Origin: Xylanibacter ruminicola 23
GTDB lineage: Bacteria; Bacteroidota; Bacteroidia; Bacteroidales; Bacteroidaceae
DNA length: 32,000 nucleotides
Assembly: GCF_000025925.1 (NCBI RefSeq)
Contig: NC_014033.1
Location: 3,120,001-3,152,000 of the forward strand
Direction of reading: 5' to 3'
Shown here: positions 13,552-21,209 of the stretch, piece by piece
How the letters are laid out: every line of letters begins with the position of its first letter
Numbering within the stretch: position 1 is the first letter of the stretch
The notes under the pieces: model-generated
The model's input: only the letters and a program-made list of their open reading frames with translations
The model's database searches: none
What the model was told of the DNA's origin: nothing
Program-made: the position numbers and the translations under genes

Positions 13552-13631
13552 TATGGATTAATAAAATGAGCGAAACGCTATAAAGGTGTCTTAAAAATGG
13601 CAAAAAGGGATGGATATTAAAATGTTTTTAC

Positions 13632-13639
13632 TATCTTTG
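13632..13639 (+). promoter_or_regulatory. Bacteroidota -7 box TATCTTTG for the GH3 gene
   Basis: It matches the TAnnTTTG consensus and lies 30 nt upstream of the ATG at 13670. Confidence 0.5.
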
Positions 13640-13669
13640 CAGGCAGAATTCATTAACTCAACACAATTT

Positions 13670-16141
13670 ATGAAGAAAACAATTTTATCGATTACAATGA
13701 TTTGTGCTGCAACCATGATGCAAGCACAGCAGCCTGCCATCCCCCGTGATGCGGTGCTGGAGGCGAAGATTGAGAAGACTCTGGCTAAGATGACACTCGA
13801 CGAGAAGATCGGTCAGATGCTGGAACTTAACCTCGACATTATTGGCAAGATGACTGTAGAGAATGCCAAGGTGGATCGTGAAAAGGTTCGTTCAGTGATG
13901 CAGCAGTATGGCAGATCGGAAGCAGAAATCAAGGATCTGCTGAAGATGACCGACCAGCAGATTATCGACAAGTTGGGTGGATTCCCAGTAGATATCTATC
14001 AGGGTGATACCAAGCGTGTTTGGAAACTGAACGAGCAGATGCTCGATACACTTATCTCTAAGTGGAAGGTGGGATCTATCCTGAATGCACCAGGCACGAA
14101 GGCTCCAACAGTAGCCCAGTGGCAGCAGTGGATTCAGCTGATTCAGAAAAAGTCGATGAAGTATCTGGGTATTCCTGATATCTATGGACTGGATCACAAC
14201 CACGGCGTAACCTATACTCAGGGTGGAACACTCTTCCCACAGCCCATCAACTTAGGTGCATCGTTCAATACCGAACTGGCTCGCAGAGGTGCTGAGATTA
14301 CAGCTTACGAGAGTCGTGCAGCTAACTGTCCTTGGGTGTATAACCCAGTGGTTGACCTGAGTCGTGACCCACGTTGGCCTCGTGTATATGAGAGCTTTGG
14401 CGAAGATGCTATCGTAAACTCAAAGATGGTTACTGCTGAGATTAAGGGTTATCAGGGCGATGATAATAACCACATCGACCAGTATCACGTAGGTACCAGC
14501 ACCAAACACTACTTTGCCTATGGTGCCCCCTGGACTGGAAAGGATCGTACTCCAGCCTACCTCTCGCCACAGATGATTCGCGAGAAGTATTTTGAGCCAT
14601 TCAAGGCAGCTGCTTTGGCTGGTACACTCACCATGATGGTTAATTCGGCTTCAGTCAACGGCGTGCCTGTTCATGCCAGCTACGAGTATCTGACCAAGTG
14701 GCTGAAGGAAGACCTGCAGTGGGATGGATTCCTGGTTACCGACTGGGCTGATATCAACAATCTGTTCTCTCGTGAGCATGTAGCTAAGGATAAGAAAGAT
14801 GCCATCCGCATTGCTATCAATGCTGGTATCGATATGTCGATGGATCCCTATAGCGTTGAGTTCTGTATCCTGCTGAAGGAGCTGGTACAGGAGGGTAAGG
14901 TGAAGATGAGTCGTATTGATGATGCTGTTCGCCGTATCCTGCGTGCCAAGTATCGTCTGGGCCTCTTCGAGAAGCCAAACACAGGTGGAAAGGGCTTTGA
15001 GAAGTTTGGTAGTGCTGAGTTTGCAGCCGCTTCGTTGAAGGCTGCTGAGGAGAGCGAGGTGCTGCTGAAGAACGAGGGCAATATTCTGCCTCTGGCAAAG
15101 GGTAAGAAGATTCTGTTGACTGGTCCTAACGCCAACCAGATGCGTTGTCTGCATGGTGGTTGGAGCTACACCTGGCAGGGTTCGAAGGCAGAGGAACTCT
15201 CAGAGAAGTACAACACCATCTACGAGGCTCTGTGTAATAAGTATGGTAAGGAGAACATCATTCTGGAGCAGGGTGTGACCTATAATGAGAATGGAGCTTA
15301 CTATGATGAGAACGAGCCACAGATTGACAAGGCTGTAGCCGCTGCCGACAAGGCCGATGTGATTATCGCTTGTATCGGTGAGAACTCATATACCGAGACA
15401 CCTGGTAACCTGAACGACCTGTGGCTGTCGGCAAATCAGCGCAACCTGGTAAAGGCACTCGCCAAGACTGGCAAGCCCATCGTCATGGTGCTGAACGAGG
15501 GTCGTCCTCGTCTGATTGCTGATATCGAGCCATTGGCTAAGGCTGTGGTAGATATCCTGATTCCTGGTAACTACGGTGGCGACGCGCTGGCTAACCTGTT
15601 GGCTGGCGATGCTAACTTCTCGGCAAAGATGCCTTACACCTATCCTCGCGAGATTAACTCGCTGAACACCTATGATTATAAGGTATCAGAAGAGGTGGGC
15701 ACCATGGCTGGCGCTTACAACTACGATGCAAAGGTAAGTTTGCAGTGGCCCTTCGGCTATGGCATCAGCTACACCACCTACGAGTACAGCAACCTGAAGG
15801 TTGACAAGAAGCAGTTTACTGCCGCTGATGTGCTGACAGTAAGCGTAGATGTAAAGAACACTGGCGCCAAGGCCGGTAAGGAGGCTGTTCTGCTTTACAG
15901 CAGCGATCTGGTTGCATCTATCGTACCTGACAACAAGCGTCTGCGCGACTTCACTAAGATTGAGTTGCAGCCAGGCGAGGTAAAGACTGTTACCTTCCAG
16001 TTGCCTGCCAAGAACTTAGCCTTTGTAGGCGCCGATGGTAAGTGGACCCTTGAGGAGGGCGACTTTATCCTTAAGGTTGGCAACCAGACCGTAGGTACTG
16101 CTTGCACACAGACAAAGATCTGGGACGAGCCTAATATTTAA
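13670..16141 (+). CDS. Glycoside hydrolase family 3 (BglX-like beta-glucosidase/exo-glycosidase), secreted
   Basis: It has a signal peptide ([21 protein letters not shown]), [17 protein letters not shown], and the nucleophile motif GFLVTDW. The ATG at 13670 lies downstream of the TATCTTTG -7 box at 13632-13639. Confidence 0.9.
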
Positions 16142-19100
16142 TCTCGTCCTGAGTAATATAGTTCCGATTAAGGGGCAGGGAGTTTGGCGTTATCGTAAAC
16201 TTCCTGCCTTTTTCCATGTTCAGTGTTACCTTCTGGAATCTGGGGGCGGCTAACATATAACGATCGGTAGCCGGACAAACAGGATAGAATCCGATAGAAC
16301 CAAACACATACCAAGCCGACATCTGACCAGCATCGTCGTTACCCGACAAGCCGCCTGGGGTATCGTTATACTCTGTATCAAGGATATGGGCTACACGCTC
16401 GATGGTCTTTTCGCGCTTGTCGATAAAGTCGTAAAGCCAGGCTATCTGATGACAAGGCTCGTTGCCGTGCCAGTAGCGACCTTCTGAGAAGAGTGAGTCG
16501 AGCTTGGCCTCGAACTTCTCCTTGCCACCAAGCACATCGATGAGGCCTTCTACATTCTGTGGTACATACCAGGTATAGTGACAGGTTGCCCCCTCGGTAA
16601 TGTACGACTTGCGATGGATAAAGTCGGTGTTGTTCTCAAACTTTCCGTTCTGATGGCGACCGTCGCAATAGCCTGTCTTGGGATTGATCACGTTGCGCCA
16701 GTTTTCCGAGCGACGCATCAGTTCCTTGTAATCCTGCTCCTTACCCAAAGCCTTAGCCAACTGGGCTACAGCAAAATCGTCGAACGCATATTCAAGGGTT
16801 CGTGAGGTCTGCTCATCCTGGTGGAAAGCCTCTTTCACACCATCCTCCAAGGGGATATAACCGTATTTCAGGTACGAGGTGAGGGCTCTGCGACCCATGC
16901 CGTTCTTGTAGTCGTTGAAGTTGGCAGGTGTTTCAAACGCATTCTTACGCATGGCCTCGTAGGCTTTTTCGTAGTCGAAGTTCCTGATACCTTTGATATA
17001 GGCATCGGCCAGTACAGCGCTACAATGGTCGCCAATCATAGCGGCGGTATATGAGTTCCAGCAGGGGAATATGGGTAGCCAACCGCCTTCGGTGTACATG
17101 GTTACCAGCGATTGCATCATGTCTGCCGCCTTATCGGGTGCTATCAGCGTATAGAGCGGGTGCAGGGCACGATAGGTGTCCCACATCGAGAAGTCGCCGT
17201 AATAGGTAGGGTGATGGGTGGCAGGTGATGGGTGTTGGATGCTACCATCAGCAAACTTGGGATAAGCGCCATCCACATCGCTCATCTCGCGGGGGAGGAA
17301 CGAGCAGCGATAGAGGGCACCATAAAACTGATTGATGCGTGCTGTGTTGCTATCCTCTACATCGATGGTATGCAAGCGGTCGATCCATTGCTGGGCTGTT
17401 TGCGCCATTATGGTTTCAAAGTCGAAAGCTTCTACTTCTGTAGCGAAGTTTTTCTCGGCGCCTTGTTGGTTGGTAAACGAGGTGGCGGCCTTCAGGATGA
17501 TGGGCTGATAGGCTTTGCCCTCGAAGGTAAACCAGGCGCAAAGGCTATCTACACCACAGTCCTTTATTTCATCGTAAGCCTTTAGCAGATAGTGCCCATC
17601 GAAGCCAGCCTGCTCGCCCCAACCTTGATAAATACGATGCACAGGGTTGCGGCCATAGATAGTCTTCGTCTGCGGGTCAATCTGCAGATAGCCCACCTTC
17701 TCGTCGCTATTATGATTCAGTACGATGTGTACTGGTCCGTCCTGCTCAGGTGTGATGCGGAAGATGGCTGCATGGCTGCTACCTGTCATCTCTATCTTCA
17801 GATGTTCCTTGGGCAGACGTACGGCATAGTAATGGGGATGCGATATCTCTTGCTGATGCGAGAATGGGGTGGCGCGTTGTTCGGGCTTTAAACGAAGTTG
17901 ACCGCTGAGAACGGCCAAAGTAAACGATCCATAATCCTGTGTGCAACCACCTACTATCCAATGACTGTTGCGAATACCCTGAAACAGCGAGTCGGTATAA
18001 TAATAAGGTGCAATGCACTTCTGCTCAGTATCGCGGGTCTGGGGTGTCCAGAAGTTCTGTCCGTTGGGTACGAGTACTGCTGGCAGTGTTTGCCCGTGCT
18101 CTTCCGATCCTTTGCCAAACAATCCTGCAGTCTTAGTGTTGGCAGGCGCTGTGCCCACCATGGTGTTTAAGGCACATAGCTGGCGCAGATGCTCAAAGTG
18201 GTGCAGGCGGTCGGCTACCTGTTGCTTCAGCGCCTGCCAGTTCATAAAGCCTATCGAGTGCTCGTTATGCAGCAGTTGCACCTGCACGTCGCCCTGTGCA
18301 TTCTTGTAGAATATCATCTGCAGGTTAGCCGCCATGGGCAGAATCTCGTCCATGTAGTTATAATGCTCGCCTCTGAACTTAATACCCATCAAAGAAAGCA
18401 GACGGTACAGGTTTGAGTCGTGTCCGAATCGCAAGTCGGCACCCACGCCGCCACGGGCGATGGCTGCATCAGCATCGGCCTCGATACGTTGCCAAAGCGA
18501 GATGGCGCTGCGGGCAGCTATGCCATTGTTCTCAATCACGTCGCCATGAACAATCGTCATGCTCTTATTGTTCTTCTCGTAAACAGCCTGAAATTCTTCG
18601 GCTGTAAAGATATCGTAGAGCGATACGTTCAGCTCAACATCCTGCATATCCGATGCGATGGTGTGTATCTCCATCAGCAACTTGGCTGGCTCTTTTATTT
18701 TCGAGGCATCTATGAACAGGGCTTTGATAAATCTGTCGGGCGAGATGGTGAGTGGCACGTTGGTGCTGTTCTCTAACGCTTTTTCCTCTGGCGAGGTATA
18801 GGCTATCCATGCCATATCTTCTTCGCGGGTGATAGGTGTAAGGTGTTGGGTGTTGGATAATAGTTTTAGTTCATCCACAAAATTCTCCATGCTCACCTTG
18901 CATCTGTTTACGGTACTGCTATGTGCCGTTAAGTGGGCATCGTTAGTAAACAGTTGGGGGAAGTTCTGGTACATTCTGCGGGCTATGCCACGATGCTGTC
19001 GGGCACCAAGTGTTGTAAGCTGTCCGCCGTTGCCTTTGGCGTTCTTCCATATTTTTTCCAGTCGCTTACGCACATCCTTACCTAACTTTGTCAGGTTCTT

Positions 19101-19355
19101 GGTGTCGGCAAAATGCTCGTTCACCCAGGTGTAACGTGCATCGTTGGTAAGCCAGCGTGAACCATGCCTGCCATAATGCGAAATGTAGAACGGCTCGTAA
19201 CCAGCAGGGGCCGACTGTAACTGAGGCTTATCTGTACCCGTTTCGATGGGATAGGCATAATACACGCCGCCCCATTTCTCGTATTGTGCAAACACGGGGT
19301 TAGCTATCATGCATGCCAACCCTATCAACATCATTGTATATAGTACTTTCTTCAT
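16131..19355 (-). CDS. Fusion protein: N-terminal histidine acid phosphatase domain joined to a C-terminal GH92 alpha-mannosidase
   Basis: A signal peptide is followed by the RHGSRW catalytic motif (aa 63-68) and GHDSN (the HD motif) of branch-2 histidine phosphatases. From about aa 395 onward it is GH92, with [14 protein letters not shown] and [17 protein letters not shown]. At 1074 aa it exceeds the typical ~750 aa of a GH92. Confidence 0.88.
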
Positions 19356-19367
19356 ATCTTAATTATA

Positions 19368-21209
19368 TCAGTATCTTAGTAGTTCAAAAATAAAACGTGC
19401 ACCTTGCTTATAATCGGTGTCAACCCGCAGGTCGCCGCCCAATCGCAGGGCAACAGAGCGTGCTACAGTAAGTCCGATGCCAGTACCATCGGCAAACTCG
19501 TTCAGTTGTACAAACTCGTCAAAAATATGTTCGCTCTCATCAGCAGGAATGCCGATGCCTGTATCTTCTACGATAAAACGAACCAGACCATCGATAGCCT
19601 CGGCTTGGAGGCTGATGGTGCCCTCGTGTGTAAACTTTGCGGCATTCTCCAGCAGCTGTGCAAGAAGTCGTGAGGCATGCAACTTGTGGGTTAGCACACT
19701 AAGTGCATTGGTAGCTGCATCTATCTGTACTTTGAGCGTTACAGCAGCCTCTTTGTTTGTGGGGCGTGTGCGCTGTTCGATGCCAGAGTAACTAATAGCC
19801 TGAGCCACAATGGTTTGAATGTCGGTGTGGTCCTCGCGTTCAATCTTTGCATCGCTGTGAATGTTGCTTATCATCAGCATGCGGTCTATCAGCTTGGTAA
19901 TGCGGTCGGTATTCTCGGTTACCCGCTCCTGAATATCTTTCTTTTCCGTCTTAGGCAGATCCATTTCGGGCGAGGTGAGTACCTGGGTAAAGCCCGATAC
20001 GATGTTAAGCGGCGTACGTATTTCGTGAGAGATATTACGGATAAACTCGCTTTTCATCTTTGATGATACTTCGGCTTTCTCGTTGGCTATGCGCAGTTTG
20101 TCGTTTATGCGCTTTAGTTTGATAGCTGTTCGCCAGCCAAACAGCATCAGTATCAGGAGTGCAACCACCACAGTAGCTGAGGCCAGCACGGTATAGAAGA
20201 ACTTGGCGTGCTGCTGCTCTTCCTTGAGCTCATCTACTTGGAAGATGGTGTTCAACTCGTCGAGGTGTTGACGTGCTTCGTGACTGAACACCGAGTCTTT
20301 TTCCTGATACAGGCGCTGATAAATCTGTGCCGCGTCGTTCCCTCGTCCTAACTGCATCAGGGCCTGGGCTCTTATCTCGTCGTTATGATCGTCCTTTTCG
20401 TTGGTAATAAACTTTACGCTGTCGGTATAAAGGAGTGCGTTGGCTGCATCGCCTGCTGCCATATAGTAGCGGGCCTGCATTTTATAATAGTGGTGCAGAC
20501 TGAGCGAGGTGTTAATCAGGTGGGCATGATGATGGGCGGTGTCAAGCGCCATTTGGGCATCATGAAGTCTGTTCAGTCCGATAAAGGCGGCAGCACGGGC
20601 CAGATAGCAGGCGTTATAGCATTCGCGAACATGTGGTTTCTTAACCTTGCCAACCTTGGTAAGCAGAAAGTGCATCCATTCGTTGGTTTCCTGCAGTTCC
20701 TGCTTGTATTGCTTGTTATAATCGTAGGCCTTGGCAATGCGGTAGTAGATGTTGCTGATAGAATTAAAGTCGTCCTCGTCCTTCATCAGTTCGGCATAGT
20801 GCTTCAGTGCCTCAACGGCAGGCTCAGTCTGTTTCATGTTCAGATAAATCACACCTATCTGTTTATAGGCCATCGCACGTCCTAACTTGTTGTCGCGCTC
20901 CTGGGCATCGCTCAGCATGCGCTGTGTTTCCTGCAATGCTGTCTGTAGTTTGCCTTGTGCACTCAGGGCGTTGGCTTTTAGTTGCCAGGTACGATAGTAG
21001 TTGTCCCACTCGTCATGCGAGCCGAACCACTCCATTTGAGCATTGGCCTCTTGGGCCAGCTGTTGGGTTTGCGATGAGTTCTTAAGTGCCACAATCTTCT
21101 GCCATCGCGCTTCACTCTCTTGTTTTACATCCGTAGCGCCGCCACGAACAGCATAGAGTGCAAAGCCCCATGTTAGCAGAGCGATAACTATTAATAGCCG
21201 TTTTGTCAT
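19368..21209 (-). CDS. Sensor histidine kinase with a TPR-like extracytoplasmic domain (HisKA + HATPase_c); no receiver domain and no cognate response regulator nearby
   Basis: An N-terminal TM segment is followed by about 320 aa of helical TPR-like repeats and a second TM (FFYTVLASATVVVALLILMLFGW). The H-box is FIRNISHEIRTPLN, and the G-boxes are DTGIGIP and GTGIGLTVA. The ATG at 21209 forms an ATGA overlap with the GH92 stop, whereas the track start at 21221 is TTG. Confidence 0.85.
   Translation of the reverse strand: MTKRLLIVIALLTWGFALYAVRGGATDVKQESEARWQKIVALKNSSQTQQLAQEANAQMEWFGSHDEWDNYYRTWQLKANALSAQGKLQTALQETQRMLSDAQERDNKLGRAMAYKQIGVIYLNMKQTEPAVEALKHYAELMKDEDDFNSISNIYYRIAKAYDYNKQYKQELQETNEWMHFLLTKVGKVKKPHVRECYNACYLARAAAFIGLNRLHDAQMALDTAHHHAHLINTSLSLHHYYKMQARYYMAAGDAANALLYTDSVKFITNEKDDHNDEIRAQALMQLGRGNDAAQIYQRLYQEKDSVFSHEARQHLDELNTIFQVDELKEEQQHAKFFYTVLASATVVVALLILMLFGWRTAIKLKRINDKLRIANEKAEVSSKMKSEFIRNISHEIRTPLNIVSGFTQVLTSPEMDLPKTEKKDIQERVTENTDRITKLIDRMLMISNIHSDAKIEREDHTDIQTIVAQAISYSGIEQRTRPTNKEAAVTLKVQIDAATNALSVLTHKLHASRLLAQLLENAAKFTHEGTISLQAEAIDGLVRFIVEDTGIGIPADESEHIFDEFVQLNEFADGTGIGLTVARSVALRLGGDLRVDTDYKQGARFIFELLRY

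Follow-up and report, generated by a model that had tools for sequence, protein, structure and literature searches.

A conserved fusion of a histidine acid phosphatase to a GH92 glycosidase in Prevotellaceae and its possible role in degrading plant sphingolipid head groups

Introduction

The characterised members of glycoside hydrolase family 92 (GH92) are single-domain enzymes or carry putative carbohydrate-binding modules only (PMC10167667, a 2023 structural paper). In BT3990, one of those with a solved structure, Glu533 is the catalytic acid and His584/Glu585 confer α-1,2 specificity (PMC5930347). In the mannan system of Bacteroides thetaiotaomicron, the phosphatases BT3783 and BT2630 are Mg-dependent and resemble tyrosyl-DNA phosphodiesterase, and the mannose-1-phosphate bond is cut by a GH38 enzyme (PMC4978465). 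Among the histidine acid phosphatases (HAPs), multiple inositol polyphosphate phosphatases (MINPPs) carry an HAE tripeptide in which Glu donates the proton, compared with the HD of classical acid phosphatases (PMC3969271). Here we describe a gene of Xylanibacter ruminicola 23 that encodes a HAP and a GH92 glycosidase in one open reading frame (ORF). It lies within a 32,000-nucleotide stretch of contig NC_014033.1 (positions 3,120,001 to 3,152,000), referred to below as the window; positions are those of the window unless given as genome positions.

GH92 enzymes have been treated as single-activity tools for mannan and N-glycans, and a family-wide fusion adds a second catalytic domain to this picture. 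From its sequence, the fusion gene is real, conserved and uncharacterised, with two predicted enzyme activities on one polypeptide. Our literature search found no paper on a HAP-GH92 fusion or on its locus, in keeping with the first-pass annotation of this DNA, which knew of no characterised example of the architecture. The search also returned nothing relevant on a Bacteroides mannose-6-phosphatase, on glycosyl inositol phosphoceramides (GIPCs) in connection with polysaccharide utilisation loci, or on loci combining GH89, GH92 and GH28. Public records name the fusions 'GH92 family glycosyl hydrolase' or 'alpha-1,2-mannosidase', and the phosphatase has been overlooked.

One reading frame encodes a signal peptide, a phosphatase and a GH92 glycosidase

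A single uninterrupted frame of 1074 aa on the minus strand (16131-19355) encodes both the HAP and the GH92 domains, the latter referred to as GH92a (Table 1). This bears out the first-pass annotation, which had read these positions as one secreted phosphatase-mannosidase; Pfam and PDB phmmer searches identify both halves, and the strand is our addition. To describe conservation we used an alignment of 29 fused orthologues that are 52-83% identical. The predicted signal peptide, which agrees with the earlier description of the protein as secreted, ends in PVFA/Q (the slash marks the predicted cut), and the 'AQ' at this site is kept in the consensus of the 29 orthologues. We take such a site, with Gln at +1, to be of the signal peptidase I type, so that the protein would be soluble and either periplasmic or secreted. 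The predicted protein is most likely soluble and exported, with a periplasmic location favoured.

The phosphatase half ends in a long helix (aa 373-395) that passes directly into the start of the GH92 half (LNTMVGT, aa 396-402), and no flexible, low-complexity linker separates the two. An AlphaFold model of the full 1074 aa reached a pTM of 0.85. Together, the model score and the linker-free helix junction suggest that the two halves may be held in a defined mutual arrangement.

Table 1. Features of the fusion gene and its neighbours, with positions in the window
Feature	Position	Strand	Basis or remark
Whole fusion ORF: signal peptide, histidine acid phosphatase (HAP) and GH92 (GH92a)	16131..19355	-	1074 aa
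Signal peptide, aa 1-23, predicted cleavage PVFA/QYEKW	19287..19355	-	by inspection of the sequence
HAP domain, branch 2, Minpp-like fold, HD type, aa 29-372	18240..19271	-	PDB phmmer and Pfam PF00328
RHGSRW, aa 63-68: putative nucleophile His64, with Arg63 and Arg67	19152..19169	-	invariant, 29/29
GHDSN, aa 311-315: His312 and putative proton donor Asp313 (HD motif)	18411..18425	-	invariant, 29/29
Long helix ending the phosphatase half, aa 373-395	18171..18239	-	AlphaFold model and junction alignment
GH92 N-terminal β-sandwich domain, aa 416-626	17478..18110	-	Pfam PF17678, 1e-30
GH92 catalytic (α/α)6 domain, aa 632-1068	16152..17462	-	Pfam PF07971, 2.5e-153; PDB BT2199, 6e-103, and 7ZGM, 5e-101
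ITEG, aa 919-922; Glu921 aligned with BT3990 catalytic acid Glu533	16590..16601	-	invariant, 29/29
GNDDAG, aa 1005-1010; Asp1007/Asp1008	16326..16343	-	conserved, 28/29
TPR sensor histidine kinase between GH92b and the fusion gene	19368..21209	-	Pfam
Second GH92 (GH92b) with C-terminal domain X of ~165 aa	21206..23818	-	Pfam
Domain X of GH92b, ~165 aa	21209..21703	-	
Convergent GH3 gene, 3′ end overlapping the fusion ORF by 11 bp (16131-16141)	13610..16141	+	

The phosphatase half is a full-length branch-2 HAP of the HD type

The phosphatase half matches the Pfam family His_Phos_2 (PF00328) only weakly, at 27.2 bits compared with a cut-off of 23.6, and none of the NCBIfam profiles match it. 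When aa 1-398 were compared with the PDB by phmmer, however, the structure 7R5Y, a 'histidine acid phosphatase', aligned over aa 29-368 (7e-38), and B. thetaiotaomicron Minpp structures matched at about 1e-25. The alignment with 7R5Y runs from end to end, and the half is full length despite its weak Pfam score. The RHGxRx motif, an HD second motif and full-length family similarity are all present, as predicted for a branch-2 HAP, and both signatures named in the initial description are present. The first motif reads RHGSRWL (aa 63-69), with a Leu in place of the final Pro of the RHGxRxP type.

The candidate catalytic residues R63, H64, R67, R151, H312 and D313 are invariant across all 29 fused orthologues, as are E921 and E966 of the GH92 half. 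This invariance rules out, as far as sequence can, a dead phosphatase domain. In the mechanism that we propose, His64 would attack a phosphomonoester, Arg63, Arg67, Arg151 and His312 would hold the phosphate, and Asp313 would protonate the leaving group.

Membership among the true MINPPs or phytases was considered and ruled out. The second motif is HD and not HAE in 29/29 orthologues, and the position equivalent to Arg183 of the BtMinpp S2 pocket (position 177) is not conserved: it is Arg in this protein and in 9/29 orthologues but Asp in 17/29. Besides the fused copy, this genome encodes six stand-alone HAP paralogues in frames of 434-471 aa, an unusually large number for one genome.

The GH92 half lacks the loop that confers α-1,2 specificity

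The GH92 half scores 459 bits against TIGR01180 (cut-off 249) and shows the features predicted for the family: the β-sandwich and (α/α)6 domains, the catalytic Glu and the two Asp residues of GNDD. The GNEP motif falls at aa 964-967 of the fusion protein. Its closest GH92s in the PDB are BT2199, 7ZGM, BT3130, BT3965 and BT3990, with E-values of about 1e-89 to 1e-103. Asp1007 and Asp1008, conserved in 28/29 fused orthologues, are presumably the GH92 catalytic base and Ca2+ region, as reportedly described by Zhu et al. (2010). The GH92 half would act as a Ca2+-dependent inverting exo-α-mannosidase, with Glu921 as the acid and Asp1007/1008 as the base.

The '580-loop' that holds His584/Glu585 in BT3990 is deleted, leaving 13-16 fewer residues here than in five solved GH92s, and the deletion is common to all orthologues, whether fused or unfused. 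With the loop gone, two residues of the BT3990 triad for α-1,2 specificity (His584, Glu585 and Trp88), namely His584 and Glu585, are missing, and the public label 'alpha-1,2-mannosidase' is probably wrong for the fusion proteins. We propose that the +1 subsite is unusually open as a result of this deletion. The last ~40 residues found in most orthologues are also missing, both here and in three close relatives (G370 and two sister-genus genomes). The earlier description of a complete GH92 therefore holds for the two domains and for the intact GNEP and GNDDAG motifs, but not for the 580-loop or the C-terminal end. A 'uncapping' GH92 of the CcMan5 type, acting on mannose-1-phosphate, was ruled out on overall similarity, as CcMan5 matches at 5e-21 compared with about 1e-100 for other GH92s.

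The fusion is widespread in Prevotellaceae and fits a single origin

The genome is one closed contig of 3,619,559 bp and is 99.8% complete. Many independent assemblies and isolates contain this ORF as well, which together with the closed genome rules out an assembly artefact and upholds the original view of the frame as one gene. In a scan of species-representative genomes, HAP and GH92 shared a single frame in about 36 loci or species-level genomes, drawn from Xylanibacter, Segatella, Hallella and rumen Prevotella. Named carriers are Xylanibacter ruminicola KHT3, X. brevis ATCC 19188, Segatella hominis, S. paludivivens, S. sinensis, S. albensis and Hallella bergensis, alongside many rumen and gut metagenome-assembled genomes. 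We also searched protein clusters with the phosphatase region as the query, restricting the search to proteins of at least 590 aa. This census matched 1373 clusters, of which 120 were listed. The listed proteins are about 1025-1105 aa long, except for one 604-aa entry, and carry GH92 domains, most of them also with a precomputed His_Phos_2 domain (Prevotella sp. P6B1 and ne3005 are among them).

A maximum-likelihood tree built from 85 phosphatase domains places all 35 fused HAP domains in a single clade (support 99/98). The clade contains two further rows, a secondary fission and a sequence truncated at a contig end. This clade is nested within a second one (99/99) containing the stand-alone and X-fused HAPs (domain X is described below) that lie beside the orthologous GH92 in Bacteroides, Phocaeicola and Mediterranea, where HAP and GH92 are separate genes of one shared locus. 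The six other HAP paralogues of this genome fall outside the 99/99 clade, as does a second group lying behind a different SusC/SusD pair. This topology is consistent with a single ancient fusion in the Prevotellaceae lineage. The second group is a related HAP clade found directly behind that other SusC/SusD pair in other species (e.g. L088, L092, L099 and L107).

The fusion has also been undone. Two sister-genus genomes encode the GH92 alone, at 72% identity (L026:8356-10512 and L027:8638-10788). In both, the signal peptide is followed directly by a stretch matching fusion residues 383-402, so that the mature N-terminus retains the last ~17 residues of the HAP C-terminal helix. This remnant indicates that the HAP domain was secondarily lost in the lineage. 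A contig labelled 'Lachnospiraceae bacterium' (L053) carries a Prevotellaceae-type locus with GH28, GH92b-X and the fusion; it is probably mis-binned, because its HAP groups with that of Segatella hominis in the tree.

The fusion belongs to a conserved glycan-utilisation locus

By its gene context, the fusion is part of a glycan-utilisation locus conserved in Bacteroidales. At the core of this locus are SusC/SusD, a phosphodiesterase of the GDPD type, one or two uronidase-like enzymes of the exo-GH28 kind, two GH92s, the HAP, a GH89 α-N-acetylglucosaminidase and an HGSNAT-like acyltransferase of the Acyl_transf_3/DUF5009 membrane type. In Prevotellaceae the order is SusC, SusD, (GDPD), GH28, GH92b-X, HAP-GH92a, GH89 and acyltransferase; in Bacteroides it is GH89, acyltransferase, GH92a, GH28 (one or two) and HAP; and in Phocaeicola it is GDPD, GH92a, GH28, GH92b and X-HAP. 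SusC/SusD adjoin the locus in many relatives (L051, L060, L063 and L068). One of these, L051, reads SusC, SusD, GH92b-X, HAP-GH92a, GH89 and AcT3, to which L068 and L082 add GDPD and GH28.

These gene contents come from a Pfam scan of the ORFs in five loci (L021, L022, L030, L037 and L038) and from 80 loci mapped by tblastn with a chosen panel only. The scanned ORFs included GH28, GH89, Acyl_transf_3, GDPD, SusC/D and HTCS, and two had no Pfam match. Within the five scanned loci, and among the 80 mapped ones as far as the panel reaches, we found no GH76, GH125, GH38, GH99, GH18 or GH130.

Members of the locus are fused in other combinations as well. The GH92a orthologue is found as GH28-GH88-GH92 (1571 aa, L032:1003-5718), as GH92-GH28 (1281 aa, L035:7121-10966) and as GH28-HAP-GH92 (at least 1321 aa, L024:3387-7352), the last with an in-frame TAG before its final 289 aa. 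Public data further contain HAP-GH89, GH92-(X)-HAP, HAP-metallophosphoesterase (calcineurin-like), GH2-HAP and tandem HAP proteins, as well as a HAP joined to a GDSL esterase (HAP-family fusion records P0253, P0193, P0207, P0130/P0266, P0124/P0137 and P0267).

Because the unfused genes share one locus, the phosphatase and mannosidase activities appear to be functionally linked. The first-pass annotation had gone further and proposed an obligate coupling of dephosphorylation and demannosylation. The link itself stands, but 'obligate' overstates it: Bacteroides and Phocaeicola encode the two enzymes in separate genes, and one Prevotella-type lineage has lost the HAP domain again.

Gene context suggests the head groups of plant GIPCs as a possible substrate

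GIPCs are the most abundant plant sphingolipids. Their head group is built as ceramide-phosphate-inositol-glucuronic acid (GlcA) bearing mannose (Man), glucose, glucosamine (GlcN) or N-acetylglucosamine (GlcNAc), with further hexoses and pentoses in the B-D series, and the Hex-HexN(Ac)-HexA-inositol phosphoceramide form (hexose, hexosamine with or without an acetyl group, and hexuronic acid) is dominant in monocots (PMC12201980). The enzyme set of the locus maps one to one onto this structure, from which we infer, with a probability of roughly 0.5, that the fusion acts in degrading the glycosyl-inositol-phosphate head groups of plant GIPCs. In support of this assignment, the nearest characterised relatives of the HAP are inositol-phosphate phosphatases, and the carriers of the locus live in the guts of herbivores and omnivores. 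Furthermore, free-amine GlcN, whose removal would need an acetyltransferase and GH89, is rare outside inositol glycolipids and heparan.

In the proposed pathway, the phosphodiester to ceramide would be cut first and the head group imported. The GH92 halves would then take off α-mannose, the acyltransferase would acetylate GlcN for removal by GH89, GH28 would take off the uronic acid, and the HAP half would finally remove the phosphate left on inositol. The fusion would thus unite in one polypeptide the enzymes that act at either end of a single small molecule. A more detailed and more tentative version would make the fusion the signature enzyme of a hitherto unrecognised GIPC-head-group locus that is widespread in gut Bacteroidales. 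Here the HAP would be a glycosyl-inositol-phosphate phosphatase, the loop-deleted GH92 would cleave α-mannose from an aglycone other than mannose (GlcN(Ac), GlcA or inositol itself), and GH28 would be the first α-glucuronidase of its family.

Several observations weigh against the GIPC assignment. The evidence for the substrate is gene context throughout, and the pTM of the fusion model is at most an indirect hint of a fixed domain arrangement. The HAP need not prefer inositol phosphates, as its second motif is HD and not HAE and the Arg183 position is so often Asp. We know of no GH28 that cleaves α-glucuronic acid, the family acting on galacturonic acid. No lipid-acting enzyme was recognised in the loci; GDPD is present in only part of them (GH88 in some), and a tblastn search of this genome found no GDPD. 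The locus is also scattered in X. ruminicola 23 itself, with the SusC/SusD/GH28 orthologues 14-19 kb past the right end of the window and GH89 with the acyltransferase 0.9 Mb away (genome 2229390-2232717).

An alternative substrate is another acidic, phosphorylated glycan containing mannose, uronic acid and α-GlcN(Ac), such as a bacterial or fungal wall or capsule polymer or a lipopolysaccharide-core-like structure, with the HAP acting on a sugar phosphate. GH28 enzymes are known for galacturonic-acid linkages only, and the nearest structures to the GH28 partner are exo-polygalacturonosidases; the HAP is without MINPP-specific features, and GDPD enzymes also cut glycerol-phosphate diesters of the teichoic-acid type. 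To our knowledge, however, no abundant gut or rumen glycan has this composition, and both the one-to-one match to the GIPC head group and the presence of the locus in plant-fibre specialists speak against this alternative, which we regard as unlikely.

A different inositol glycolipid could be degraded by the same mechanism, with glycosylphosphatidylinositol (GPI) anchors or protozoal glycoinositolphospholipids (GIPLs; Man3-GlcN-inositol-phosphate), or fungal mannosyl-inositol-phosphoceramides, supplied by rumen protozoa, fungi and yeasts. The α-mannosidases, the pairing of a GlcN-acetyltransferase and GH89, the phosphodiesterase and the phosphatase of inositol-phosphate type would all suit GPI/GIPL cores, and mannosyl-inositol-phosphoceramide is abundant in yeast (PMC9246714). 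These head groups, however, are without uronic acid, and GH28 is the most constant partner of the locus, even being fused to the same GH92 (GH92a-GH28 and GH28-HAP-GH92a), with GH88 joining in one lineage. A source of this kind is accordingly less probable again than an acidic phosphoglycan.

The first-pass annotation had favoured phosphorylated α-mannans or high-mannose N-glycans (Man-6-P or Man-1-P-6-Man), on which the HAP would remove the phosphate of Man-6-P so that the GH92 could proceed. GH92s are the classic enzymes for mannan and N-glycans, the fusion always has a second GH92 beside it, a GH92 that cleaves Man-1-P exists in CcMan5, and the mannan loci of B. thetaiotaomicron do combine GH92s with phosphatases (PMC4978465). 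That analogy, drawn at the outset, holds for the presence of phosphatases alongside GH92s but not for the enzymes themselves, as the B. thetaiotaomicron phosphatases are from another family and Man-1-P falls to a GH38. The five annotated loci and those mapped with the tblastn panel show none of the mannan or N-glycan families listed above, and the conserved partners GH28, GH89, acyltransferase and GDPD, sometimes joined by GH88, have no mannan or N-glycan role. Given also the remoteness of the GH92 half from CcMan5, we consider a phosphomannan or phospho-N-glycan substrate improbable, and less likely than either the acidic-glycan or the inositol-glycolipid alternative. The idea of coupled dephosphorylation and demannosylation was thus right in principle, with the substrate probably a different one.

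Finally, that the HAP half is a general phytase or phosphate scavenger attached by chance, sharing no substrate with the mannosidase, is very improbable: BtMinpp, its nearest characterised relative, is a phytase and six further paralogues exist in the genome, but the locus-linked HAP group occurs only inside the locus and apart from those paralogues, has been fused independently to several enzymes of the locus, and does not conserve the MINPP pocket residue Arg183.

The gut handling of GIPCs is uncharacterised according to a 2026 review (PMC13516135). If GIPC head groups are the substrate, the locus would provide a concrete, testable gene set for this process, with new enzyme specificities predicted. 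The fusion also serves as a Rosetta stone that ties together an undescribed locus of two GH92s, GH28, GH89, acyltransferase, GDPD and HAP, spanning rumen and human-gut Prevotellaceae and Bacteroidaceae.

Neighbouring genes in X. ruminicola 23

In the window, the fusion gene is the last of a predicted minus-strand operon, preceded by GH92b-X and a TPR histidine kinase. GH92b is consistently found as its upstream partner. The kinase occupies this position in only five related loci (L042, L044, L045, L048 and L049), and the closest relative, G370, is without it, its two enzyme genes abutting. From this distribution, the kinase looks like a lineage-specific insertion into the predicted operon. The convergent GH3 gene adjoins the fusion gene in the closest relatives only (L040 and L041).

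The domain X that ends GH92b appears in Phocaeicola-type genomes as the N-terminal domain of a 579-aa X-HAP with its own signal peptide (L037:14109-15848). As X is carried by GH92b here and by the HAP there, it seems to move between two neighbouring genes. Its AlphaFold model is confident, with a pLDDT of 84; a Foldseek search of the PDB found nothing at E ≤ 1e-3, its best hits being weak and LolA-like (TM score 0.33).

No SusC/SusD pair lies within the 32-kb window. The orthologous pair is found at genome positions 3165860-3170540, within a set (3164501-3174912) that also contains the GH28 orthologue (3164501-3165823) and a HAP paralogue and that lies beside GH51, GH127 and PfkB kinase genes. 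The wider region, at genome positions 3159036-3174912 (7-23 kb past the right end of the window), makes up a second piece of the same system, comprising GH51 and GH127 arabinofuranosidases, the PfkB kinase, GH28, SusC/SusD and the stand-alone HAP paralogue. An NMT1-like protein and a Cache-HAMP-SpoIIE sensor phosphatase are encoded there as well.

Comparison with described systems

The closest described phosphatases are BtMinpp (BT_4744) and 7R5Y, with which the fusion HAP shares the RHGxRx motif, the conserved Arg, the His of the second motif, the same fold and similarity over the whole domain; all three are exported Bacteroidales proteins. Identity to the locus-linked HAP group (30-40% overall) is at most 40% for 7R5Y and at most 32% for BtMinpp, and both fall outside that group. 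In contrast to these two enzymes, the fusion HAP is joined to a glycosidase and lies inside a glycan locus, and it differs from MINPPs in having HD for HAE and in the lack of a conserved equivalent of BtMinpp Arg183. Similarly, the GH92 half resembles the single-domain enzymes BT2199, BT3990, BT3130, BT3965 and 7ZGM in its two-domain layout, catalytic Glu and GNDD motif, but differs from them in the deleted 580-loop, the shorter C-terminus and the additional N-terminal catalytic domain.

The pairing of an acyltransferase with GH89 in the locus recalls HGSNAT and NAGLU (GH89), the lysosomal heparan pair. The logic of that pair is the removal of α-linked GlcN attached to a uronic acid. Unlike the lysosomal pathway, the bacterial locus has no heparan-type sulfatases or lyases, and in this genome the pair lies far from the fusion, as described above.

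The yeast-mannan loci of B. thetaiotaomicron differ from the present locus in using separate proteins, another phosphatase family and the companions GH76, GH125, GH38 and GH99. In concept, however, the two are alike, in that a phosphatase and exo-mannosidases would cooperate here, as they do there, in one locus on a phosphorylated glycoconjugate (PMC4978465).

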